Source of the DNA: an uncultured Bacilli bacterium
Lineage (GTDB): Bacteria; Bacillota_I; Bacilli_A; RF39; UBA660
DNA length: 64,000 bases
Direction of reading: 5' to 3'
NCBI GenBank assembly: GCA_947626115.1
Contig: CANQQX010000003.1
Coordinates: 415-64,414 of the forward strand
The notes under the pieces are model-generated. The model was not told the origin of the DNA. It ran no database searches and saw nothing but the letters and a program-made list of their open reading frames with translations. The stretch's first letter is position 1. The number at the start of each line of letters is the position of its first letter. This document shows positions 27,198-52,648 of this stretch, one piece after another. The translations under genes were made by a program, and so were the position numbers.

Positions 27198-27410
27198 TTA
27201 GATAAATTTTATTTTAATATCACCAGTTATATAATCATTATAAGAAAAACTTTTTTCTACTCCTTCATAAATTATGGAAAAAATATTGGGATAAGTTTTA
27301 TATAAAGTTCCTTCATAACGATTTATTTTATTGCGTAAGCCATAGACAGTAACTACTACTCTTTTATTCAAATTACTCTCTATTTTTTGTCTAACTAAAT
27401 CTATATTCAT
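27198..27410 (-). CDS. veg: Veg family protein
   Basis: 70 aa, MNIDLVRQKIESNLNKRVVVTV...GTLYKTYPNIFSI, adjacent to yabG as in B. subtilis. Confidence 0.85.
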   Translation of the reverse strand: MNIDLVRQKIESNLNKRVVVTVYGLRNKINRYEGTLYKTYPNIFSIIYEGVEKSFSYNDYITGDIKIKFI

Positions 27411-28180
27411 TATCTTGGATACCCCACATACATAAGGCCATTACCAATAATGCCACCCATACCATCTTTACCATATTTAGTTTTTTCTAATACTTTCTTT
27501 AAATCTATTTCTTTATTTCTTTCCGTTAAAGCAATAGTAACGGCAATAATGGCTGGATCTAAGGCATGAATATTTACTCTTTTAGGACTAGATGCATAAT
27601 TGGCTCCAGCTTTAATTAATTCTTCATAATTACTTTGACAAGCACCTGCAATAATAACTAACTTTTCGTGACTCTTTTCATAATTTCGAGCAGCCTTAAC
27701 AGCTTTAATAAAATTCTTAGTATTTTTATAACTATCTAAATTAGTAATACTTTCACCTTTTTTTAAAGCATCATGACCCGTAATAATTAATATATCTGGT
27801 TTATATTCTTTTAAAAGTAAGCCAACTTGTTCATACATATCTTCTTCTTTAATTTTTTTACCAATCGCATATACCCCAATATGTTTATAATATTTTAAAC
27901 ATTTTTCTAAATATTCATTATCCCCATCTATGTGTAGTATCTTACCAGGTAAATAAAAATAATCATCTTTTTCTTTTATTTTAGTACTTCTTACATCATC
28001 ATTATAACTTTCTTCTTTCGGCTCTTCACACTTAACTAAATCAGATACTTCGCTATCAGCATATAATCTAACTTCGGCACCTTTTAAATAATAAATACCA
28101 TTTTTTATATTAATAACTTTAAAAACTGTATCATTGTTGTAACTTTTTCTGGTCACAAAATCCCCTTTATTAATTTCCAA
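27410..28180 (-). CDS. yabG: sporulation-specific protease YabG
   Basis: The N-terminus GDFVTRKSYNNDTVFKVI...VRLYADSEVSDLV parallels B. subtilis YabG. A TTG start at 28180 is likely, because a terminator hairpin lies inside the longer track ORF (to 28225). Confidence 0.85.
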   Translation of the reverse strand: MEINKGDFVTRKSYNNDTVFKVINIKNGIYYLKGAEVRLYADSEVSDLVKCEEPKEESYNDDVRSTKIKEKDDYFYLPGKILHIDGDNEYLEKCLKYYKHIGVYAIGKKIKEEDMYEQVGLLLKEYKPDILIITGHDALKKGESITNLDSYKNTKNFIKAVKAARNYEKSHEKLVIIAGACQSNYEELIKAGANYASSPKRVNIHALDPAIIAVTIALTERNKEIDLKKVLEKTKYGKDGMGGIIGNGLMYVGYPR

Positions 28181-28212
28181 ACATATCACCAGTAAAGTAT
28201 ATGAAAATTTAA

Positions 28213-28237
28213 TTAAAAAAAGCACTTTTTAAGTGCT
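28213..28237 (-). terminator. rho-independent terminator ending the accessory operon
   Basis: On the minus strand: AGCACTT-AAA-AAGTGCT followed by TTTTTTTAATT, 14 nt after the anti-sigma stop. Confidence 0.65.
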
Positions 28238-28250
28238 AATAAATAATAAA

Positions 28251-29024
28251 TTATAACTCTACATTATTTAAAATATCTATTAATTCATCTTTGCTTACAT
28301 TATATCCTTGTATATTATAAAAGATATTATTGTATACAAAAGTGCAGAATGTTTGTGGCCAATATTTACTCTCTGACCATTTAATAATATTAACATCTAA
28401 ATTTAATTTATCTAGGTGATAAGTCTCTAAAAATTTTGATACTGATGATGTTCCCTTTAAAATACTAATATTTTTAAATTCTTCTTCATCATCTTTCGTA
28501 GCATATTGAGTCATAAAGTTTATATCTACTTGTAAATATTTCTTTTTCCGTGTTTCTTCTTTATTCAAATCATATTCACTATAATTATCATCATTTTGTA
28601 ATTTTATAACCCTTATATTTTCATTTTCATCTAATGTTAATTCACAAATATTATAACTATCTTTATTGAAGTTATTAAATTTTAATAATTTTATGTTTAA
28701 TCCTTCTTCTAATTCTTCATGTGTAATATTCTTTTTACATACAAAGTTAGTATTAACTTCTAATTTTTCATTTAAATCTAAATCAAAGATTGTGTCTTTA
28801 CCAAACTTTTCTGTATCTTTCATTTGATAAATATAATCTTCAATGTATTCTTTGGCCATTACTCCAACCCCTAGAAATATAAATAATATTAATATTACAA
28901 TAACAGGTTTTAATATATATCCTTTAGATAATTCTTTTTTATAAATAGTATTATTATATATTTTTTCATCTAATTCTTTAGATACTTTAATATCTTTAAA
29001 AAAATTATTAAATTTATTTTTCAT
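28251..29024 (-). CDS. putative anti-sigma factor (short cytoplasmic N-terminus, one transmembrane segment, extracytoplasmic domain)
   Basis: 257 aa. It overlaps the sigma gene by 11 nt. The transmembrane segment is ILKPVIVILILFIFLGVGVMA. The C-terminal ...YNIQGYNVSKDELIDILNNV recalls DUF4367-type anti-sigma ectodomains (from memory, needs an HMM check). Confidence 0.6.
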   Translation of the reverse strand: MKNKFNNFFKDIKVSKELDEKIYNNTIYKKELSKGYILKPVIVILILFIFLGVGVMAKEYIEDYIYQMKDTEKFGKDTIFDLDLNEKLEVNTNFVCKKNITHEELEEGLNIKLLKFNNFNKDSYNICELTLDENENIRVIKLQNDDNYSEYDLNKEETRKKKYLQVDINFMTQYATKDDEEEFKNISILKGTSSVSKFLETYHLDKLNLDVNIIKWSESKYWPQTFCTFVYNNIFYNIQGYNVSKDELIDILNNVEL

Positions 29025-29496
29025 TGTAAACTCCTTTCATTTCTTTGGCTAAACTTTTAACTATCCTATCTAGTTTAGTTTGAACAGTAGAAGAATTCAT
29101 CTTTAAAATACTCGCTATTTCTTTATGTTTATAACCTTCATAATAATATAAAAATATAAGTATTCTATCTTTAGGTTTAAGTTTAAATAAAGCATCCTTT
29201 AAATCGTTATCATAATTTTCTAAGTAATATAAATTATTTTCTTCTTTTTTATCCATTTGAATTACTCTTTTATACCAAGAAGATAAAAAATAATTTTTAC
29301 ATTCATTAACTGTAACTTTAATACACCATTTTTTAATTTCAATATCACTTGTAAATTTATTTAAATTTTTAAATAATTTAATAAAGACACTTTGAGTAAT
29401 ATCTTCCGCTTCATTTATATTTTTAGTATAACTAAATGCTAATCTTAAAATATCATTTTTGTATAAATTATAAATTCTAATAAATTCTTCTTCCAT
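29014..29496 (-). CDS. ECF-type sigma-70 family RNA polymerase sigma factor
   Basis: Region 2 (AEDITQSVFIKLF...) and region 4 (LKPKDRILIFLYYYEGYKHKEIASILKMNSSTVQTKLDR) are present. The ATG at 29496 is preferred; the track start at 29523 is a TTG. Confidence 0.88.
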   Translation of the reverse strand: MEEEFIRIYNLYKNDILRLAFSYTKNINEAEDITQSVFIKLFKNLNKFTSDIEIKKWCIKVTVNECKNYFLSSWYKRVIQMDKKEENNLYYLENYDNDLKDALFKLKPKDRILIFLYYYEGYKHKEIASILKMNSSTVQTKLDRIVKSLAKEMKGVYNEK

Positions 29497-29587
29497 TACG
29501 CACCACTTTGAAAGGCCTTTCAATATAATAACAAATAAGATTATTAAAATAACTCAAAAAAATAAAAAAGCAATTTACTTTTTTATT

Positions 29588-31798
29588 TTAAGGCAATTTT
29601 ATTTTAAATGCTGTATTAGGAGTTTTTCCGTCTCCACTTTCTATTATGACATCATCTCTCAATGTAATAGTTGGTTTTACGGCAAAATAATTGTCATATG
29701 TTTCTTGAAATATACCTTGGGTTTCTGTCTCAAATACTCCAATCATTGGGTAGTTACCATCACCATATGGAGTCATTGTAGCAGTCTTATAGTCGTGTGT
29801 ATCAGTTCCTCCTAATGGATATGCAAACAATTCACCAACAATTGGAAGTCCAACATATCCAGTCCAAGTATTCGTTGTTTTTTCACAGTCTTTAGTAGTT
29901 TCAGAAGTGTCTGTTTTTTTACATATCGTATTTTTATAACTACCAATCCTGCTTCCATCTTCAGGTTTAAGTTGAGCAGGATTTACATAATAAGTATCTT
30001 CAACCAAATATTTTTTTATACCTTGTTTTTCAAGTTTTTCAAGCCATTCATTATTTAAATACGATAGCCAATAATTATCATTATTTGACTTAACAATTCT
30101 ATCATATGTCTCACTTACACCAGCATCTACATCATATTTAAAATCCATACTACCAAATTGTTTTTTCATAACAGAACCATTATCATCTTTGATATAATTA
30201 GCACTTTTTAATTTAGTTACAAATTTTCCATCTTCATTTTTATGAATATTTACTATACGATATAACATATCATTAATCTGAACAAGTTCTCCTGGAGTTC
30301 TTGTATTTATTGGATCTCCAACTTCAGCTGCTTCTATATCATCTAATAAAACAAAGGGATTAGTTTGTGTTCCTTCACCACTAAATTTAACATCTTTCTT
30401 TAAAACCACCACAGGGCGAACTCCAAAAGCAGTATTTGGCACATCCCATCCTGCTATTCCTCCAAATTGATTAACTCCATTAACACCTGTATAAGGAGGA
30501 GGGGTCAAATTAAAATATGATGATAACCACCAACTATGTCCAAGATTTAAAAAACTACTGCTACCAAACAAAGCAGTCTTGTTAAATTCGTAAGGATTCA
30601 TTAAACCAACGGGAGCTTTTGTTGTATTAGGTGGCTTAATATAGCACCAATTATACCAAGGTGATATATCCCAAGTAGCATCTTCCACTAATATGTTTTC
30701 ATGATTATATAAAGTATCTAAAAAATCTTCATTTAACCATTGTTTTATATATGAGTTTTCAAAGAATCCATCTTCACCAAAATTTATAGCCGATAAAATA
30801 TTTTCGGTAATCATTTTAACTTTTCCATCATTTAATATTTCTGTTATTCTCCACATATAACCCGAATACCAAACATAATTAAAATTCAAACATTCATTAG
30901 TTCCCCAAAAATAGGTATGATAAGGTGGTGTATCATCAAACCCATTATCACCATTACAAGGTGAATCAGTTTGGGATATATTAAAGTATCCACCATTATA
31001 ATTACACATTTTACTATTAGCAATATCCATTATAAATTCACCTAATGTTTTATTTTGAATAATTACATCACCAGTAACATTTTCTATTTGTAAAACATTA
31101 CTTTCTAAAGTAAAATCAGTTACTTTTATATTACCTACATATACATTTAAATTATTTCTATTAATACTATTATCTAAAGTAACTTTTAAAGTATCACCAT
31201 CCATTATTTCTTTAGGATATTTACTTATATTTATATTAAATCCAGAATAAGTTATTTTATGGAATTCTCTAAAATCAATATTTAAATTTAAATTATAAGT
31301 ATCTTTATCACTTCTAAAACCATTCTCTTTATATTTTATAGTAATTTTTATTTCTTTTTTTATTCCTAAATTACATCTATCAACACCACATATTTTATCT
31401 TTTAATTTATAATCATCGATAACCATTTCTAAATTATCTGGTAAATTATCAATTTTTAATATACCCATATCAACATTACCATAATTAATTATTTCTACTA
31501 TAAATGATACAGTAGAACTTTCATTAGGTAAAGTTATATCAGCAAATACTTTGTTATGATCATAATCTTGGGATAATATAATACCACCATTTGTTATACC
31601 ATTACTTACAACAGACGTAACTCTTATATCTTTTTTAGCATTTACCCTTACTGATAAATCATTAACATATAATTTTTGTAAAAAAGCCGACCAACCAATA
31701 GTTAAAAATAATAAACAACAAAAAAGAATACTCAATATTAAATATTGATAATTTTTTCCTTTTTTATATCTTTTATTTATATTTGCTATTTTTTTCAT
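29588..31798 (-). CDS. large secreted protein with a TasA/TapA-type (SipW-dependent) signal, an N-terminal domain like the 221-aa protein, and two copies of the domain found in the 466-aa protein
   Basis: The signal ...LLFLTIGWSAFLQKLYV compares with TasA GGGTWAAFND. Repeats include MWRITEILNDGKV...HSWWLSS...GVRPVVVLKKDVKFSGEGTQTNP and MLYRIVNI...AVKPTITLRDDVIIESGDGKTPN. Confidence 0.75.
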   Translation of the reverse strand: MKKIANINKRYKKGKNYQYLILSILFCCLLFLTIGWSAFLQKLYVNDLSVRVNAKKDIRVTSVVSNGITNGGIILSQDYDHNKVFADITLPNESSTVSFIVEIINYGNVDMGILKIDNLPDNLEMVIDDYKLKDKICGVDRCNLGIKKEIKITIKYKENGFRSDKDTYNLNLNIDFREFHKITYSGFNINISKYPKEIMDGDTLKVTLDNSINRNNLNVYVGNIKVTDFTLESNVLQIENVTGDVIIQNKTLGEFIMDIANSKMCNYNGGYFNISQTDSPCNGDNGFDDTPPYHTYFWGTNECLNFNYVWYSGYMWRITEILNDGKVKMITENILSAINFGEDGFFENSYIKQWLNEDFLDTLYNHENILVEDATWDISPWYNWCYIKPPNTTKAPVGLMNPYEFNKTALFGSSSFLNLGHSWWLSSYFNLTPPPYTGVNGVNQFGGIAGWDVPNTAFGVRPVVVLKKDVKFSGEGTQTNPFVLLDDIEAAEVGDPINTRTPGELVQINDMLYRIVNIHKNEDGKFVTKLKSANYIKDDNGSVMKKQFGSMDFKYDVDAGVSETYDRIVKSNNDNYWLSYLNNEWLEKLEKQGIKKYLVEDTYYVNPAQLKPEDGSRIGSYKNTICKKTDTSETTKDCEKTTNTWTGYVGLPIVGELFAYPLGGTDTHDYKTATMTPYGDGNYPMIGVFETETQGIFQETYDNYFAVKPTITLRDDVIIESGDGKTPNTAFKIKLP

Positions 31799-31807
31799 TA
31801 TGCACCA

Positions 31808-32932
31808 TTAATTATTTACTTCCATATCACTAGCTTTTATTTGTAATAAGTAAACATCATTATCATTTTTTATATAAAAATAACACTTTTGATGCTTAAC
31901 AATATTGTAATACATTATAGGTAATTTTAAATTATCTCTTACATCTAGTAATTCATTAAATTTATCAATCTTAATAATACTACTATTTTTATAATCAATA
32001 CCAGTAGTAGTTTCGACAATTAAACGATCATATTCTTTTAATATTTTACTTAAAAATTTATCATATACACTTTTCTTTTTAAATACTAATGATACTAACT
32101 TAATAATTTTACTTATATAAATTGCAGATATAATAAATAATACTATTTCTAATATTAATATTTTATAATTAAAAATCATTTCTTTATCCGCGATTGCTTT
32201 TTTCATTAATGCTGTATCTTGACTATCAAATTTAATTTCAATGCTTCGTTCTGATAATGGAATTATTATTGAACTTTCTGTTTTATCATTAATATTTAAT
32301 TTATCATCTTTACTTTTTTTATCTACTTCTAAATAAACTTTTAAATAACTATTAGTTTCTACTCCATAAGAAGAATTAAAACTGCTAACTAAACTATTAT
32401 AATAATCATAATCTATATCAATACTTTCATTTATTGCTAAAGTATTAGTATTAACCATTTCTTTATTTTGGGTATCTAAAAGTACATATTTCTTAGTAAA
32501 ATAATTTGTACTACCAGTTGAATTAGATATAATTAAATCACCTAGAATTCGATAATCAAAATTAACATCAAATATTTCATCTATTTTAAATAAATAAGAG
32601 AAATCAATATCTATTTTATCAATTAAACTAGCAACATATATCATATTTTCACCTAAATATTCAGTATCATAGAATTCATTTGGTTTAACATATACTTTAT
32701 AATTTATTCCATTATTTTCGTTATAATTAACAACTTTTGATTCCGTATATTGAATAGTTTTAGTAGCAACATAGAGACATAAAGAAAAAGCCACAAGAAA
32801 AATAGCCATGTTAAAAATCATTCTAAATCTAAAGCTAAAATGGCGTCTGTATTTACTTTTTAATTTTAGTTTTTTCGTACTTTTATTAGATTGATTGTTC
32901 TCGGCTGATTTTAACTCTTCCTTTCCTTTCAT
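31808..32932 (-). CDS. bitopic membrane protein of unknown function (possibly DUF5305-like)
   Basis: 374 aa. A basic N-terminus is followed by a transmembrane segment (FNMAIFLVAFSLCLYVA), a loop of about 210 aa, a second transmembrane segment (ILILEIVLFIISAIYISKII) and a cytoplasmic tail of about 100 aa. It is tightly packed in the operon. Confidence 0.65.
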   Translation of the reverse strand: MKGKEELKSAENNQSNKSTKKLKLKSKYRRHFSFRFRMIFNMAIFLVAFSLCLYVATKTIQYTESKVVNYNENNGINYKVYVKPNEFYDTEYLGENMIYVASLIDKIDIDFSYLFKIDEIFDVNFDYRILGDLIISNSTGSTNYFTKKYVLLDTQNKEMVNTNTLAINESIDIDYDYYNSLVSSFNSSYGVETNSYLKVYLEVDKKSKDDKLNINDKTESSIIIPLSERSIEIKFDSQDTALMKKAIADKEMIFNYKILILEIVLFIISAIYISKIIKLVSLVFKKKSVYDKFLSKILKEYDRLIVETTTGIDYKNSSIIKIDKFNELLDVRDNLKLPIMYYNIVKHQKCYFYIKNDNDVYLLQIKASDMEVNN

Positions 32933-32955
32933 TCATTTTTGCCTCTCTTTATCTT

Positions 32956-34083
32956 TTACAACTCGTTTATTAAAACGGTTGGAATGCCAATATAAGGTAT
33001 TTTAATATTAACAATGCCAATTATATTATCTTTGGTAAGAACAAAATTATCTCTTTTTTCATTAGCGTCTCCCTTAGTATAAAAATAATAATCATTTAGT
33101 ACTTTTGCTTTTTCTACTAAACGATGGACTATTACTGTGCCATTATAATTAAACGCTATTACTTGTCCTTCTTTAAGACTATCATAATCATCATCAATTT
33201 TTTCAACTATTACAACATCACCTTTTCTAATAGCCGGAGTCATACTACCACTTGCAATAGCAACAGCTTGATAATGAAAATATCCTGATGTAAAATAAAC
33301 TAATAAAATGACTAATAAGGCCGGTACTATATAGGCTTCTAATCTTCTTTTCTTTTGCTTCCTTTCTACTTCTTCATCATGATCACTTTTTAAAAATAAA
33401 TAGACACGATAACAAAACAATACAGGTAATAATAATCTAATAATAGACATTATATATTGATTAGGATTAGGTACAATTGGAATTAAGTATAAATATAATT
33501 CTAATACTAATCTAAAAAGAATCATTGGTTTATATCCTACATTCATTCCTATATAAGATGCTACTATATTTGTACTAACGGCAGGTAAGACGGTTAATGA
33601 TAAAAATATAAAGGCATTATATACAGAATCGTGTAGGTTATAATATAAAGTTGTTGAAATGTCTATAAAGACAAAAAGCAAGGTCGTTGTAACAATTAAT
33701 AACCAGCTTCCTTCAGATTTACATAAAAATTGATATCTTAAAAATTCTTTAGTAATAATTAATAATATTATAGGTAGTATTATATTAATAAAATCTTTAA
33801 TATTATAATAATTATCAGTTCTAGCAAAACTTATTATTAATCCTGATAAATAGAATAAAAGAAAAAAGATTAATAGAAATATAATACAGTCAAAAATAAT
33901 ATCTTTTGTGTAACGATGTCGATCTTTCTCAAATCCGAAGAAAAACTTGAACATAACAACTATAATAAGTAAAAATATTAACATTAAATAATCACTTAAT
34001 ATACTTGAAACAAAACTATTTATACACAAAACAATGAAAATAATTGTTTCAAATGCTAACAAACGCTTATACCCACTTTTCAT
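32956..34083 (-). CDS. sipW: SipW/archaeal-type signal peptidase I fused to an N-terminal polytopic membrane domain of about 250 aa
   Basis: The C-terminal 120 aa contain ASGSMTPAIRKGDVVIV...VIVHRLV...TKGDAN (a Ser/His ER-type SPase signature). The preceding 250 aa form about 7-8 hydrophobic helices. Confidence 0.8.
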   Translation of the reverse strand: MKSGYKRLLAFETIIFIVLCINSFVSSILSDYLMLIFLLIIVVMFKFFFGFEKDRHRYTKDIIFDCIIFLLIFFLLFYLSGLIISFARTDNYYNIKDFINIILPIILLIITKEFLRYQFLCKSEGSWLLIVTTTLLFVFIDISTTLYYNLHDSVYNAFIFLSLTVLPAVSTNIVASYIGMNVGYKPMILFRLVLELYLYLIPIVPNPNQYIMSIIRLLLPVLFCYRVYLFLKSDHDEEVERKQKKRRLEAYIVPALLVILLVYFTSGYFHYQAVAIASGSMTPAIRKGDVVIVEKIDDDYDSLKEGQVIAFNYNGTVIVHRLVEKAKVLNDYYFYTKGDANEKRDNFVLTKDNIIGIVNIKIPYIGIPTVLINEL

Positions 34084-34110
34084 TCCTTTCCTCCTAAATA
34101 GTTTTGTGAA

Positions 34111-34139
34111 AATATATTAAAGATTAACTTTAATATATT
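34111..34139 (-). terminator. 12-bp perfect AT-rich hairpin just after the major-subunit gene, a possible attenuator or mRNA-stabilising element
   Basis: AATATATTAAAG-attaa-CTTTAATATATT. Only a short U tract follows it on the minus strand. Confidence 0.3.
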
Positions 34140-34150
34140 TATTTACTTAA

Positions 34151-34816
34151 TTATGCTCCTGCATTATCTTTAGAACTATAATTTAAAGTAATAGCACCAA
34201 CTGTAACAGAATAATCATTATCAGTTAATGTTGTTCCTTCACCCGCTTTAATAGATAATTTAACTGTTTTGCTTTCACCAGCAGCTAATTTCTTACCAGA
34301 TATTGAAGCTTGATCACCAGTATAATCAGCATCATCTACAGTAAGAGTAACAGTAATAGTTTTACAAGCTGTATTTATTAATTCTGTATTAGCTGTAGCC
34401 ATACCATCTCCGGTAGCAGCACAAGCTAAAGAATCATTGGCAAAATCAATACTTGTTAAATACGCATCCATTTCACCGTTATTTACGACATACCACTCAT
34501 AAGTGATTTCTTGATTATCTTTAGTAATTTTAGCATTAGCATTTACCATAGTAGTTGCTGTAATAGTAGCAGTACCAGCATTTGATTGTCCTGCTTCTTC
34601 ATTGGTAATAGTACCTGTAACAGTTTGTTGACCTTCTTCGATTTTAGATTCTGTATTAGAAAATTCTACATTAAATTTAGAAGAATCAGCTTTAACTTCA
34701 GCAGTTGGTGTAATAGTTAATTGAGCAGTGAAAGCAGCAAAACCTACTGATAAACCAACAACAGCGATTACTAAAGCAATTATAGCAATAACTTTTGAAT
34801 CTCTATTCTTTTCCAT
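34151..34816 (-). CDS. TasA-like secreted protein with a SipW-type signal peptide, the probable major fibre or matrix subunit
   Basis: 221 aa. The signal is IAIIALVIAVVGLSVGFAAFTAQL. The mature part is Thr/Ala/Gly-rich. The gene is visibly more GC-rich than its neighbours and has a strong RBS (GAAGGAGGTG). Confidence 0.75.
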   Translation of the reverse strand: MEKNRDSKVIAIIALVIAVVGLSVGFAAFTAQLTITPTAEVKADSSKFNVEFSNTESKIEEGQQTVTGTITNEEAGQSNAGTATITATTMVNANAKITKDNQEITYEWYVVNNGEMDAYLTSIDFANDSLACAATGDGMATANTELINTACKTITVTLTVDDADYTGDQASISGKKLAAGESKTVKLSIKAGEGTTLTDNDYSVTVGAITLNYSSKDNAGA

Positions 34817-34905
34817 TATTCTTTCACACCTCCTTCGTTTTATCTTCTAGCGTATAGGGAGAGTTTTACTTTCATATTAAAACTTACATACACTATTCTA
34901 AGTAT

Positions 34906-34934
34906 ATTATATAATACCCCCCCCGAAATTGCAA
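34906..34934 (-). promoter_or_regulatory. consensus sigma-A-type promoter with a G8 homopolymer inside the spacer
   Basis: On the minus strand: TTGCAA (34934-34929), the 17-nt spacer tttcGGGGGGGGtatta, then TATAAT (34911-34906). The G8 tract is C8 on the plus strand at 34917-34924. Confidence 0.7.
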
Positions 34935-34980: not shown

Positions 34981-35301
34981 TTACTCTTCTTCAATAACTT
35001 TTGTTAAATCAAAATTATATATTATTATATCTTCTTGTTCATATTTTATATAGGTATTACCTTCTTCAATTACATAATTAATTTTATCAAGTGGTAGAGA
35101 TAACTCTAGTAAATAATCTGGTTGAATTGCTATACCTCTTCCTCTTAAAATATTATTTTTATTAGCGTCATTAAAAAGTAAAATATTTTTATTAGTTATA
35201 ATCATTGCCAAATTATATTCTTTGTTATTAATATCTAATAAAACACTCCTATCTTCATAAATTGCTTTTTCTTTGTTTTTAGTAAAATCATAATTAAACA
35301 T
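34981..35301 (-). CDS. hypothetical small cytoplasmic protein (possibly a bacterial PH-like fold)
   Basis: 106-aa ORF 12 nt downstream of the 478-aa gene. The fold assignment is only an impression. Confidence 0.55.
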   Translation of the reverse strand: MFNYDFTKNKEKAIYEDRSVLLDINNKEYNLAMIITNKNILLFNDANKNNILRGRGIAIQPDYLLELSLPLDKINYVIEEGNTYIKYEQEDIIIYNFDLTKVIEEE

Positions 35302-35313
35302 AATATACCTCCT

Positions 35314-36747
35314 TTATCTTGTTATTCCATTTAAACTATTAACAAACAAATTAACAATTAATTTATCATCTACAAACTGTTTTTCAGTTATTGTATAATT
35401 TCGAATTGTATCTTTTATTGTTTGCAAACTATATTTTTTTAATAACATATCAATTTTATCTCTATCACCAAACCTGTTAGTAATGTATTCTGATTTGCCT
35501 TCAAATAATTTTACAAGAGCTCCTTTGGCTTGTTTAATATCATAAGCGTTTAACGTATTTTGAATAGCAGTTGTTACAATATCAATTATTTCTGCTGATG
35601 GGTCTTCATTAATAACAACTCTTTCCAAATCTTGGGTAACATCAATCATAACTCTATTTTTATTTAAAACACGATTAACATATTCATTAACCATTTCTTC
35701 AAAAAATACTGTATTATCAAGATTTCCATATATTTCTTTAGCCATAATATTTATTGCAACATTTACTGGTACATATTTCGCTAAACCTTCTCTTGTTCCT
35801 TCTTTTCTGGTAATACTTTCTATATTACCATTTAAATATTTTAAAAGTGCACCTTTGGCTTGACCGGGGTAATATTTTTCTGTTACTAATATAGCTTGAT
35901 TTAAATAAAATTTAGGATCAATAATTCTTTCTCGCCATTTACCATATTTATCTATTGATTTATTATGAGCATGAGTATAAAATTGAGATAATTCAAAATC
36001 TTTAGAAGTAGTTTGACTTAAAAGAGAATAAATATCTTTTAAATCTAAATCTTTTATTTCATGAATACAATTTTTTAAATAAATATTAAAAGATTCAACA
36101 TTTAAATCTTTTACTCTATTTTTGATTTTTAATATTTTAATAAAATTTGTAATTGCATTACATAATTCAAAATTAAAGGAAAATTTATTGTCCATAGTTA
36201 AACCAATACCATTATCACTAGCTAAAAAAGGATTAACAGTTAAAATATTTTCTCTTAAAAAGGCATTACTATGGACAAAATCACAAATTCTTTGGGCATC
36301 TTCTAAAGTATTTACTCTTATAACTAAATCATCATTACGTTCGAAAGTAGCAATTTTAGATTGATGAGTAATATTGTTACTTGCTAAAAATGTGAAAATT
36401 TGTTTACCGGCATCCACTATCTTATCTTTAGCAAAAGGAATATATAATTTAACTTCATTACCATTTAATTTACCATTAGCAAACATTAAAAAATCAAAAT
36501 TAGCTCTTTCATATACTCTTAAATTAGGAGTATGTGCAAAATAATCATAAAAATCAGCGAAGTTATCTTTTAAACTTATTATTTCAGTTGAAGATAAACC
36601 ATAATTTATTAGTAAAGAATAAACTAAATCACTAGTTATTTCTCTTTTTTTATTTTCTAAAGCTAATTTTTTAATAGTGTTTAAAAAATCTTGCATTCGC
36701 TCATAGTTAGTAACTGGTATCGTTTTCTTCCACAAATTCACTTTCAT
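35314..36747 (-). CDS. unknown 477-aa cytoplasmic protein with an internal duplicated helical module
   Basis: The ATG at 36747 follows GGAG; the track start at 36750 is a TTG. The repeats are YYPGQAKGALLKYLNGNIESITRKEG and YDIKQAKGALVKLFEGKSEYITNRFG. The N-terminal segment VKLYIPFAKDK...SKIATFERNDDLVIRV faintly recalls HopA1 / LanKC-N-type domains (from memory only). Confidence 0.65.
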   Translation of the reverse strand: MKVNLWKKTIPVTNYERMQDFLNTIKKLALENKKREITSDLVYSLLINYGLSSTEIISLKDNFADFYDYFAHTPNLRVYERANFDFLMFANGKLNGNEVKLYIPFAKDKIVDAGKQIFTFLASNNITHQSKIATFERNDDLVIRVNTLEDAQRICDFVHSNAFLRENILTVNPFLASDNGIGLTMDNKFSFNFELCNAITNFIKILKIKNRVKDLNVESFNIYLKNCIHEIKDLDLKDIYSLLSQTTSKDFELSQFYTHAHNKSIDKYGKWRERIIDPKFYLNQAILVTEKYYPGQAKGALLKYLNGNIESITRKEGTREGLAKYVPVNVAINIMAKEIYGNLDNTVFFEEMVNEYVNRVLNKNRVMIDVTQDLERVVINEDPSAEIIDIVTTAIQNTLNAYDIKQAKGALVKLFEGKSEYITNRFGDRDKIDMLLKKYSLQTIKDTIRNYTITEKQFVDDKLIVNLFVNSLNGITR

Positions 36748-36865
36748 CAATCTCCATTGTATTTTCTAAATCTAAATTATCCATATCATTTCTTTCAATT
36801 TCGGAATCACTAACTAAAGGTATTTCTACTTCTTCACCATCTATTATCCATTTTTCAGTTTTCAT
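36707..36865 (-). CDS. 52-aa strongly acidic micro-ORF overlapping the start of the 477-aa gene
   Basis: Not in the ORF track. An RBS (GAAGGG) lies 6 nt before the ATG at 36865. The product is MKTEKWIIDGEEVEIPLVSDSEIERNDMDNLDLENTMEIDESEFVEENDTSY. It overlaps the next gene by about 40 nt in another frame. Confidence 0.4.
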   Translation of the reverse strand: MKTEKWIIDGEEVEIPLVSDSEIERNDMDNLDLENTMEIDESEFVEENDTSY

Positions 36866-36948: not shown

Positions 36949-37722
36949 TTATTTTAAGTTATTTAATATATCTACAAATACATCTTCAGATAATTCTTCT
37001 GCTCTTACATTATCTTGCAAATCATATTTATCTAATATTTCTTTAACTTTAGCAAAATCATAATCACTTAAATTATTTTTTAAAGTCTTTCTTTTCATTT
37101 TAAAACTATCATTTATTAATTTAAAATATTCTTGTCTTAATACATTTGGTTTATCTATTCTTTTTTTTAGTTTAATAACAGCACTTTCTACTTTGGGAAT
37201 AGGATTAAAACTATTTTTACTTACTTTAAATAATTTAGTAACATTAAAATAATATTTTAAATATAAAGTAATACTGCCATAATCTTTATTTTTAGGTAGT
37301 GCTGAAAAACGATCCGCTACTTCATCTTGTACCATAAAAAGCATTTCTTCAATATCTAAATTACTTTCAATTAAATATTTTATAATTGGGGTTGTAATAT
37401 AATAAGGCAGATTACCAACTATATACAATTTATTATAATTAATATTTTTGATATCTTCTTTAATATTACTATTTAAAATATCTTGATAAATTATTTTAGT
37501 TTTATCATCTTCATATTTATTTAAATATATTTTTAAATCAGTATCTATTTCATAACAAATTAAATTAGCATTTTTTTCTTTTAGTTTGCAAGTTAAAGCA
37601 CCCATACCAGGGCCAATTTCAATAATTAAATCATCATTGGTTACATTAATATTATCACTAATCCTTTGGATAACACTTGTATCAATTAAAAAATTTTGTC
37701 CTAAACTTTTTTTTGCGTGCAT
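36949..37722 (-). CDS. rsmA: 16S rRNA (adenine1518/1519-N6)-dimethyltransferase
   Basis: Translation MHAKKSLGQNFLID...EIGPGMGALT...GNLPYYITTPII. The ATG at 37722 lies 1 nt after the upstream stop. Confidence 0.94.
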   Translation of the reverse strand: MHAKKSLGQNFLIDTSVIQRISDNINVTNDDLIIEIGPGMGALTCKLKEKNANLICYEIDTDLKIYLNKYEDDKTKIIYQDILNSNIKEDIKNINYNKLYIVGNLPYYITTPIIKYLIESNLDIEEMLFMVQDEVADRFSALPKNKDYGSITLYLKYYFNVTKLFKVSKNSFNPIPKVESAVIKLKKRIDKPNVLRQEYFKLINDSFKMKRKTLKNNLSDYDFAKVKEILDKYDLQDNVRAEELSEDVFVDILNNLK

Positions 37723-37723
37723 T

Positions 37724-38275
37724 TTAACTCTTCTTTGTGCCATAACCAAATCGCAACACATCATAAGTAATAACACTTCTACCTATAGTATTATAAGCAT
37801 AATCATTTGATTCACTTAATAAATCTAGGGCATTACCACGAACACCACGATCAAGAACAATCGCAATTGTTGGTTCTTCTGATATTCTCTTACTATAAAT
37901 TCTAACAATTGAACCACATGGAAGATTAGAAGAAGATGCTACAATTCTAACACGACCATATACTTCATCATCATAAGTAGTTTTATAACCTGATATATCA
38001 TAAGATGGCATACATCCTAAAGTACCACCACATAATGGACAATTATAAACATAACCAGTTAAATCACCAGTAAATGTATCTTTAATACTATAAATATCAT
38101 TTTCTTTAAATTCATCTACTTTTAAAGCCATTGTAGATAAATTAACATTTTTATTAACATTATCACTATAACTTTTAGTTTCAATTATATGAACATAACT
38201 AGAAGATAAAACAACAAAAAGAATTATGGCTGAAAATCTAATTGAATAATTAATAAATTTCTTCATTATATTCAC
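37724..38275 (-). CDS. membrane-anchored 3D-domain protein (YabE-like C-terminal module)
   Basis: N-terminal transmembrane segment, then LTGYVYNCPLCGG...RIVASSSNLPCGSIVRIY...AIVLDRGVRGNALDL. Confidence 0.75.
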   Translation of the reverse strand: MNIMKKFINYSIRFSAIILFVVLSSSYVHIIETKSYSDNVNKNVNLSTMALKVDEFKENDIYSIKDTFTGDLTGYVYNCPLCGGTLGCMPSYDISGYKTTYDDEVYGRVRIVASSSNLPCGSIVRIYSKRISEEPTIAIVLDRGVRGNALDLLSESNDYAYNTIGRSVITYDVLRFGYGTKKS

Positions 38276-52521: not shown

Positions 52522-52536
52522 ATCACTATCTCCATT

Positions 52537-52613
52537 AAAAAAGCACACACAAACAGGGATCGATGTGGCTGCTGTCTTCCAACTCTGACCAGTTTACGAT
52601 ATATTTGTTGTGC
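52537..52613 (-). ncRNA. ffs: signal recognition particle RNA, minimal 4.5S-like form (about 71-77 nt)
   Basis: On the minus strand: GCACAACAAAUAUAUCGUAAACUGGUCAGAGUUGGAAGACAGCAGCCACAUCGAUCCCUGUUUGUGUGUGC followed by U6. The segment CUGGUCAGAGUUGGAAGACAGCAGCC aligns with E. coli domain IV (CAGGUCAGGUCCGGAAGGAAGCAGCC), including the GGAA tetraloop. The 5' and 3' ends pair. Confidence 0.85.
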
Positions 52614-52619
52614 AAGTTA

Positions 52620-52648
52620 ATATTATCATAAATCATCATTTAATGCAA
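52620..52648 (-). promoter_or_regulatory. promoter of the SRP RNA gene
   Basis: TTGCAT (52648-52643), a 17-nt spacer ending in TGA, then TAATAT (52625-52620). The predicted start is about 52613. Confidence 0.6.

Follow-up and report, generated by a model that had tools for sequence, protein, structure and literature searches.

A polytopic signal peptidase and DUF5305 cassette of uncultured gut Bacilli, and its candidate role in building a donor-strand surface fibre

The 64,000-nucleotide (nt) stretch considered here and referred to as the window (contig CANQQX010000003.1 of GenBank assembly GCA_947626115.1, from an uncultured Bacilli bacterium of the RF39 lineage UBA660) carries on its minus strand a compact four-gene cassette encoding a small secreted subunit of 221 amino acids (aa), a polytopic signal peptidase I, a DUF5305 membrane protein and a large secreted protein of 736 aa, which we are inclined, without strong conviction, to read as building a surface-exposed protein structure, most likely a donor-strand fibre. 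Filament loci of the kind in which a signal peptidase I is accompanied by a DUF5305 protein are known from work published in 2022-2026; the Bacilli-wide version is undescribed, and combines a sequence-orphan immunoglobulin (Ig)-like subunit with a polytopic peptidase of 375 aa, lectin-like adhesins of modular build and an attenuator that is conserved. The open reading frames (ORFs) of the cassette, together with the signals associated with them, are the following:

34906-34934, minus strand: sigma-70-like promoter of the subunit gene, TTGCAA-17-TATAAT (consensus scan, 10/12 matches)
34151-34816, minus strand: 221-aa small subunit precursor (ORF call)
34110-34140, minus strand: AT-only 13-bp stem-loop followed by UUUU, in the spacer that separates the subunit gene from the peptidase gene (-9.7 kcal/mol, z = -3.8)
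32956-34083, minus strand: 375-aa polytopic signal peptidase I (ORF call)
31808-32932, minus strand: 374-aa DUF5305 protein (ORF call)
29588-31798, minus strand: 736-aa large secreted protein (ORF call)
29553-29592, minus strand: hairpin and U-run at the end of the 736-aa gene, a possible cassette terminator (-9.6 kcal/mol, z = -3.2)

That the conserved system consists of these four genes is evident from a survey of 83 related loci, which were fetched via the peptidase and whose ORFs were called and compared with the window proteins (many of the loci being truncated). DUF5305 adjoins the peptidase in 81 of them, the small subunit (~217 aa, in 1-6 tandem copies) is present in 79, and a large protein related to the 736-aa one over the first ~290 residues of the latter is encoded in 54, with no neighbour family beyond those of the cassette recurring in more than 15 of the 83. 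Homologues of an extracytoplasmic function (ECF) sigma factor and of a 257-aa protein encoded downstream of the cassette, as well as of a 106-aa protein encoded upstream of it, were found in none of the 83 loci, the sigma pair being absent from the additional locus L090 as well, and it is therefore counted as a local neighbour. The surroundings of the cassette vary (e.g., beside gidB in L001 and after dnaG-sigA in L090). An alignment-based profile scan found relatives of the peptidase in 481 species-representative genomes, nearly all of them uncultured gut metagenome-assembled genomes (MAGs) labelled Bacilli, Mycoplasma, Erysipelotrichaceae or Tenericutes and originating from human, mouse, rabbit and ruminant guts; the peptidase fusion is almost always ~375 aa long and 45-60% identical across more than 1293 clusters. 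The 221-aa family gave 122 cluster representatives at E <= 1e-3 in a word-indexed search and 4093 representatives (50% identity clusters) at the same threshold in an exhaustive one; no further subunit copies were found in the window itself.

Some of the surveyed loci depart from the simple layout. Upstream of the peptidase, L026 (4033-8902), L049 (4800-8931), L006 (255-2419) and L048 (4444-6437) carry 3-6 subunit paralogues in tandem, suggesting alternative major subunits, and a second cassette stands beside the first in L019 (3495-5689), L025 (2884-5708) and L036 (583-2844). The second cassettes of L019 and L025 are divergent, their identity to the window proteins being 28-29% for the peptidase, 29% for DUF5305 and, in L025, 27% for a subunit that is also present; the second peptidase/DUF5305 pair of L036 is not especially so (51% and 37%). 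The MAGs of L025, L034, L036, L051, L060 and L078 are titled “uncultured Muribaculaceae bacterium” despite their Bacilli-type cassette, and their low-GC, Firmicute-like content suggests that these records are mislabelled or mis-binned.

What ties the two secreted proteins to each other, and presumably to the peptidase, is a common ending of their N-terminal hydrophobic segments, G-[FW]-[AS]-A-F, to which the original prediction made from the window's letters had drawn attention and which is confirmed: when the window is translated in all six frames, VGFAAF (221-aa protein) and IGWSAF (736-aa protein) are the only real matches to G[FYW][AS][AS]F, one further match being antisense inside gyrA. 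At the family level, G-[FYW]-[AS]-x-[FY...] is found around residue 25 in 93 of 96 subunits (GFAAF being the commonest form) and its equivalent around residue 30 in 49 of 57 large proteins (GFSAF, GYSAF, GWSAF), followed in both families by x-x-x-L-x-I; 111 of the 114 strict matches among 1105 neighbourhood ORFs belong to the two substrate families, and two of the three that fall outside them probably represent divergent subunits. Where the hydrophobic segment ends, the motif satisfies the -3/-1 rule for small residues and, if cut between its two small residues, would leave Phe at P2', a feature reported to make TasA a poor LepB substrate and dependent on SipW (PMC10269814). With predicted cleavage, an aromatic residue (Phe/Tyr) occupies mature position 2 in 88 of the 93 subunit family members examined.

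The likeness of the two substrates extends past the signal. When the 221-aa family was aligned with the large-protein family by hhalign, the match had 97% probability (E = 5.6e-11) with the signal included and, without it, P = 4e-4 at a score of 32, as compared with <=15 in ten column shuffles, so the subunit-like domain that had been proposed for the 736-aa N-terminus is real at the family level, with the alignment covering exactly the stretch pointed out beforehand. The 736-aa protein thus comprises a conserved, subunit-like N-module of ~290 aa and a variable C-terminal part, the latter being ~72% identical in only 3 of the 83 loci and weakly so (22-27%) in 3 more; no conservation is seen in the n-region of these large proteins. 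Residues 326-372 resemble DUF6273 (PF19789) at 21.4 bits, below the cutoff of 23.5, and most homologues of the C-terminal 60% of the protein carry PF19789 among their precomputed matches. A likeness of DUF6273 to C-type lectins has been reported in the receptor-binding proteins of phages (PMC10743442), and the large protein may be regarded as a candidate tip or adhesin. One homologue of its C-terminal two thirds, P0132 (60% identity), begins with PF07963, the N-methylation motif of type IV pilins, so that elsewhere a binding module of the 736-aa type is carried by another filament system.

The AlphaFold2 monomer model of the small subunit (37 sequences, mean predicted local distance difference test (pLDDT) score 80.5) consists of an N-terminal helix (residues 6-27), a low-confidence segment (28-48) and a confident beta-sandwich for the remainder. 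The segment 28-48 is predicted at a pLDDT of only ~50, yet its L33, I35 and V41 are invariant or nearly so, and a conserved strand of low pLDDT, an aromatic residue at P2' and an acidic isoelectric point (pI; predicted at 4.19 for the mature subunit, family median 4.5) are features resembling those of the donor strands of the TasA superfamily, whose namesake forms fibres by means of an N-terminal donor strand (PMC9674648). The subunit also has two conserved Cys residues. A lax Pfam scan of 104 diverse family members gave weak Ig-like matches, namely DUF7507 in 27, Cep192_D5 in 26 and HYDIN/VesB-like Ig domains in 24 (best E among the last, 9e-7), and longer members append BspA-type leucine-rich repeats or DUF6273 domains to the subunit module.

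Taken in order, the mechanism that we favour would run as follows. Both the 221-aa and the 736-aa precursors would be exported by Sec and cut by the cassette peptidase within [LI]-[ST]-x-G-[FYW]-[AS]-[AS]-F, between the two small residues, predicted as VGFA|AF in the former and IGWS|AF in the latter, so that the second residue of the product is aromatic. Once processed, the acidic Ig-like subunit would expose a conserved amphipathic N-terminal strand (A-F-S-x-x-L-x-I...A-x-V) that lies outside the monomer fold, and this strand might complete the fold of a neighbouring subunit by donor-strand complementation, giving rise to a fibre. Since its signal and strand are those of the subunit and its first module is related, the large protein would join the same structure and display variable, probably lectin-like, binding domains.

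The original prediction had read the locus differently, as an expanded TasA/SipW operon, and a truly TasA/TapA-homologous operon with an ECF sigma module of its own, transcribed as one unit from 34934 to 28213, now appears improbable. It would account for the common strand and short gaps of the genes, for the SipW-type domain of the peptidase, for the similarity, seen by eye, of [FW]-A-A-F to the WAAF of TasA and for a TIGR04088 (SipW-dependent signal) match at the N-terminus of the 221-aa protein, which is weak (13.7 bits, cutoff 19) and has no counterpart in the 736-aa protein or in three relatives. The sigma pair is, however, absent from related loci, a terminator-like hairpin lies past the 736-aa gene, and the homology itself was not borne out. 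The camelysin/TasA model Peptidase_M73 (PF12389) does not match the window protein, nor, at E <= 10, any of the 104 diverse members (HMMER filters drop most matches above ~0.1), and a Pfam and NCBIfam scan of ten window genes returned no TasA, camelysin or anti-sigma match and, for the 221-aa and 736-aa proteins, nothing above threshold. Foldseek comparison of the subunit model with the PDB gave nothing at E <= 1e-3, the best template modelling (TM) scores being 0.26-0.32 and TasA (5of1, 8aur) falling outside the top 50; no credible solved relative was found among PDB sequences by family profiles A1 and A4. In hhalign, the family profile and a single TasA sequence (identical to 8aur_A) reached 1.3% probability (P = 0.039, not significant), aligning only over PG-x-x-x-T-x-x-F-x-x-x-N-x-G, a stretch that counts among the points in favour of the operon reading. 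TasA membership is thus unsupported by the model, profile and fold comparisons made, an outcome that the original prediction had itself named as speaking against it.

What remains is a resemblance in organisation. As in tapA-sipW-tasA of Bacillus subtilis, a dedicated peptidase of endoplasmic reticulum (ER)/archaeal type stands beside its putative substrates, the signals end in [WF]-A-A-F with an aromatic P2', and an abundant small subunit goes together with a single larger accessory protein whose signal is of the same type. Unlike in B. subtilis, the window subunit is without detectable homology to TasA in sequence or fold, the peptidase is fused to a further domain and falls short of the SipW equivalog, and the large protein is a modular adhesin and not TapA; DUF5305 is, to our knowledge, not part of the three-gene B. 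subtilis operon.

Several of these results weigh against the fibre as well, namely the empty Foldseek search, the insignificant alignment with TasA and the TIGR04088 score below cutoff, and further points have to be set beside them. An hhalign comparison of the 104-sequence profile with a single sequence of AbpX, the subunit of a Pyrodictium abyssi filament (taken from the preprint supplement, 73 columns), was likewise not significant (P = 0.054), and no significant link of sequence or fold connects the family with a solved donor-strand filament subunit; an acidic residue at mature position 4, as is typical of TasA and AbpX, is found in 0 of 93 members; no LPXTG motif, S-layer homology (SLH) domain or C-terminal membrane segment is recognisable as a cell anchor; and the N-domain of the peptidase is without an assignable function. 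Polymerisation, together with the tip or adhesin role of the large protein and the accessory role of DUF5305 and the N-domain, is something we infer, and the motif is a predicted site of cleavage. The cassette might instead be devoted to secreting and processing variable surface proteins that do not polymerise (released or loosely wall-associated monomers, or a two-dimensional coat, acting as adhesins or decoys), a reading we would call unlikely, though far from negligible. The undetectable homology to any filament subunit and the lack of an anchor, or of assembly factors other than the peptidase and DUF5305, suit such a module well, as do Ig-like signatures of CARDB/ASH type, which are common in non-filament surface proteins, and strain-level divergence, which fits any exposed antigen. 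It sits less easily with a post-cleavage strand that is strictly conserved, common to both substrate classes and unpacked in the monomer model, or with a subunit/tip gene logic and an attenuator hairpin that are typical of pilus operons; moreover, every characterised signal peptidase I and DUF5305 locus makes donor-strand filaments.

The peptidase of the cassette is unusual. Its residues 1-245 form eight predicted membrane helices, which are followed by a ninth and by an extracellular catalytic domain (~250-375) that matches TIGR02228 (ER/archaeal signal peptidase I) at 82.2 bits, well above the cutoff of 51.85; the Bacillus SipW equivalog NF046067 is reached at 60.5 bits, below its cutoff of 190. 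The earlier label of a SipW-type signal peptidase therefore holds for the type of the catalytic domain, and does not hold for the protein as a whole, which, where SipW is a two-span enzyme of ~190 aa, is a 375-aa fusion with an eight-helix domain and fails the equivalog. Ser280, His320, Asp339 and Asp345 are invariant in 32 sequences (alignment A2) and lie in the motifs SGSM, VHR and GDAN, which we take to be those of Sec11-type catalytic residues. The AlphaFold2 model (pLDDT 79) has the same architecture of an eight-helix N-domain, a ninth helix and a beta-rich catalytic domain, and in Foldseek it comes closest to human SEC11A/C as they stand in the signal peptidase complex (7p2p_A, E = 1.2e-5), and next to SipA of Streptococcus pyogenes (4n31). 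No Pfam match was obtained for the N-domain in 38 members, and nothing credible among PDB sequences (the single match, E = 0.092, is to the designed protein 6vfi). An assignment of the N-domain to the Rce1/CPBP proteases was considered and rejected: the Foldseek match to 4cad (E = 0.14-0.23, TM 0.45-0.47) is too weak, PF02517 does not match, no conserved His is seen such as the CPBP motifs EExxxR, FxxxH and HxxxN would demand, and only E113-x-x-R116 is invariant.

The 374-aa protein has two membrane spans and matches DUF5305 (PF17231), a family already named in the original prediction, above cutoff (35.4 bits, cutoff 29). Following the literature on related loci, it may be viewed as a putative accessory subunit of the signal peptidase, in which case the ER/archaeal-type enzyme, working with its fused eight-helix domain and DUF5305, would be a bacterial counterpart of the multi-subunit signal peptidase complex. 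With the eukaryotic complex (SEC11A/C, SPC12, SPC22/23, SPC25; 7p2p, 7p2q) the window system has in common the catalytic domain (for which it is the closest solved structure), the Ser/His/Asp residues and the presence of extra membrane partners; it differs in that the extra helices are fused to the enzyme and the partner is DUF5305, with no homology to SPC12, SPC25 or SPC22/23. Such an arrangement would extend the emerging idea of prokaryotic multi-component signal peptidases dedicated to filament subunits.

Should the N-terminal helix be retained instead of removed, the substrates would be type II anchored or pilin-like proteins and the peptidase a chaperone or platform, a scenario we find very hard to credit. 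It takes its appeal from the N-terminal 27 residues of the subunit, which are unusually conserved for a signal peptide (M1, E2 and R5 being invariant in alignment A1), from the presence among the structural matches of SipA (4n31), a non-catalytic homologue needed for pilus polymerisation in S. pyogenes, and from the pilin-like N-terminus carried by the binding-domain homologue P0132. The catalytic Ser/His/Asp residues are invariant, however, the motif obeys the -3/-1 rule, the n-region of the large protein shows no comparable conservation, and genes for a prepilin peptidase, ATPase or platform are lacking: sortase/LPXTG, chaperone/usher and prepilin peptidase/ATPase/platform families do not recur near the cassette in the 83 loci, and none of the window genes has a sortase, chaperone-usher or type IV pilus Pfam match.

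The statement of the original prediction that no characterised system has this gene set has been overtaken by the publication of the Tafi and AbpX loci (PMC11821415; bioRxiv 10.64898/2026.01.04.697558). In haloarchaeal Tat-fimbriae loci, the DUF5305 protein TafG is encoded beside the signal peptidase I TafD, and similar archaeal clusters are known (PMC11821415; PMC12337348); in AbpX loci, a signal peptidase I of ten transmembrane helices and DUF5305 accompany the major and minor subunits and a tip protein, and the preprint proposes that DUF5305 is an accessory subunit of the peptidase (bioRxiv 10.64898/2026.01.04.697558). The window cassette matches the published AbpX layout (polytopic peptidase, DUF5305, minor subunits, tip), and by this analogy it would belong to a known kind of filament locus; homology of its subunit to AbpX is unproven. 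Compared by description with the AbpX locus of P. abyssi, the window has a signal peptidase I of about ten helices, DUF5305, major and minor subunits and a candidate tip, as well as acidic subunits with a Cys pair (disulfide-bonded in AbpX, putatively so in the window); by eye, the AbpX donor strand QWSETLSLSATI resembles AFSQTLTIxSSAxV of the window family, and a PG...N-x-G core motif is found in both. Unlike in the window family, an acidic position 4 coordinates calcium in AbpX; the window, with uncultured gut Bacilli as hosts, also differs in having neither an LPXTG or SLH anchor nor two-component or cyclic di-GMP genes. The Tafi system (TafA/TafE pilins, TafD, TafG) similarly places a signal peptidase I and DUF5305 beside major and minor pilins and a putative adhesin, with assembly by strand donation; it is unlike the window in its twin-arginine translocation (Tat) pathway, in the four membrane segments of TafD, in being archaeal and in having pilin families unrelated by sequence.

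Exposure at the surface, whichever form the structure takes, would fit the pattern of divergence between strains. In a sibling strain with the same ksgA context (L092), the peptidase is 99.5% identical, DUF5305 96.5%, the 106-aa protein 96% and ksgA 91%, as opposed to a subunit that is only 74.5% identical and a large protein whose N-module is 72% identical, and the sibling's large protein (P0134) matches only 45% of the 736-aa query length. A conserved machinery set against a fast-diverging subunit and adhesin is compatible with exposed surface antigens, and the near-identity of the former alongside the fast divergence of the structural genes makes the system a likely target of IgA and phages. 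Present in hundreds of species, the cassette is a strong candidate for mediating the attachment of these hosts to mucus, food particles or other cells.

Expression of the subunit may be set apart from that of the machinery. The AT-rich hairpin that the original prediction had noticed past the subunit gene is present, its stem comprising 13 bp, and per-sequence folding against shuffles gave z < -2 for the corresponding spacer in 61 of 67 distinct loci (median z = -3.9), with stem sequences that differ from locus to locus; RNAalifold on the MAFFT alignment of the spacers returned no pairs, the variable 5' arms being misaligned. This conservation supports the suggestion that the element affects stoichiometry, and the stem-loop is a candidate leaky terminator or 3' stabiliser, which would keep the subunit in excess over the machinery. 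The 3' flank of the spacer, TTAATATATTT[TG][CA]ACAA[GA]A[CT]TATTTAGGAGG, is almost invariant across loci. In the window, the untranslated letters from the hairpin to the start codon of the peptidase (34084-34110; alignment A5 columns ~84-118) read TTAATATATTTTCACAAAACTATTTAGGAGG; with proteins only 45-60% identical between loci, this near-invariance exceeds what a ribosome-binding site alone would explain.

At the other end of the transcript, the promoter foreseen at 34934 was recovered by consensus scan, and its spacer (34912-34928) contains a G8 tract (34917-34924), the only run of at least 7 G/C in the 64 kb of a window with 24% GC. A G8 or G9 tract is found at the same place of the promoter in L040, in L043 and in three of the four paralogue genes of L049, and an interrupted version (GGGGCGGAGG) in L097. 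Phase-variable homopolymer tracts in promoter spacers include the poly-C of Bordetella fim and the poly-G of Neisseria meningitidis porA, and the window resembles such promoters in having its homopolymer between the -35 and -10 elements of a major-subunit promoter. The promoter and 5' untranslated region are identical in nine other assemblies, and phase variation is a lead only, because no variation in tract length was seen in ten assemblies, which represent the window species and its sibling strain. A more ambitious version of the fibre reading can be put together from these elements, in which the cassette would represent an unrecognised donor-strand pilus family and the chief variable organelle on the surface of uncultured gut Bacilli with small genomes, with the peptidase and DUF5305 both cleaving the subunits and serving as their membrane platform or anchor, and with swappable paralogues and lectin-like tips, possibly switched by the poly-G tract, providing antigenic and binding variation; it is offered as speculation and we would not expect all of it to hold.

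The genes and signals that surround the cassette are listed below:

36949-37776: ksgA (equivalog hidden Markov model, HMM)
35314-36750, minus strand: 478-aa gene between ksgA and the cassette (no Pfam/NCBIfam match)
34981-35301, minus strand: 106-aa gene between ksgA and the cassette (no Pfam/NCBIfam match)
29014-29523, minus strand: ECF sigma factor (ORF call)
28251-29024, minus strand: 257-aa single-pass protein, anti-sigma-like by position only (ORF call)
28221-28237, minus strand: terminator-like hairpin past the 257-aa gene (consensus scan; weak fold, z = -1.8)
27410-28225: yabG (equivalog HMM)

All six ORFs from the subunit to the 257-aa gene were found where the original prediction had placed them, in the same order and on the same strand, with intergenic gaps of 67, 23, 9 and 64 nt and then the anticipated 11-nt overlap of the sigma factor and 257-aa genes (29014-29024), and a terminator-like hairpin near 28213 was also detected by consensus scan. 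The single transcript that was to connect 34934 with 28213 is less apparent: co-transcription with the sigma genes is not evident, because a second hairpin with a U-run directly follows the 736-aa stop. This hairpin starts in the last sense codon and spans the stop codon (29588-29590), only 1 of 200 shuffles folds as well, and it was missed by the simple terminator scan because its stem is almost entirely A-U. The sigma factor itself is clear (TIGR02937, 80.1 bits, cutoff 42.9). Its 257-aa companion has no Pfam or NCBIfam match and no match to an anti-sigma HMM, so that the anti-sigma label keeps the support of the overlap and of the single-pass topology and goes no further. The idea of the pair as the locus's own regulator is not supported, given its absence from all related loci surveyed; it would be a neighbour and not a component of the system, probably a lineage-specific one with its own transcript.

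The block was also thought to be inserted between ksgA and yabG, which is correct for the window lineage, is not general (relatives having other contexts) and understates the size of the block by the two further genes upstream of the cassette. The 478-aa protein encoded by one of them is 80% identical in the sibling strain, as against 91-96% for its neighbours, and L071 has a weak homologue (28%) at a distance of 5 kb from its cassette. A role in a spore appendage, prompted by the neighbours yabG, veg, spoVG and yabP, was considered and dismissed, the contexts of the relatives being unrelated and the promoter looking sigma-70-like. Elsewhere in the window, the sole Rfam family detected is the small bacterial signal recognition particle RNA (RF00169, 53.1 bits), at 52528-52624 on the minus strand.

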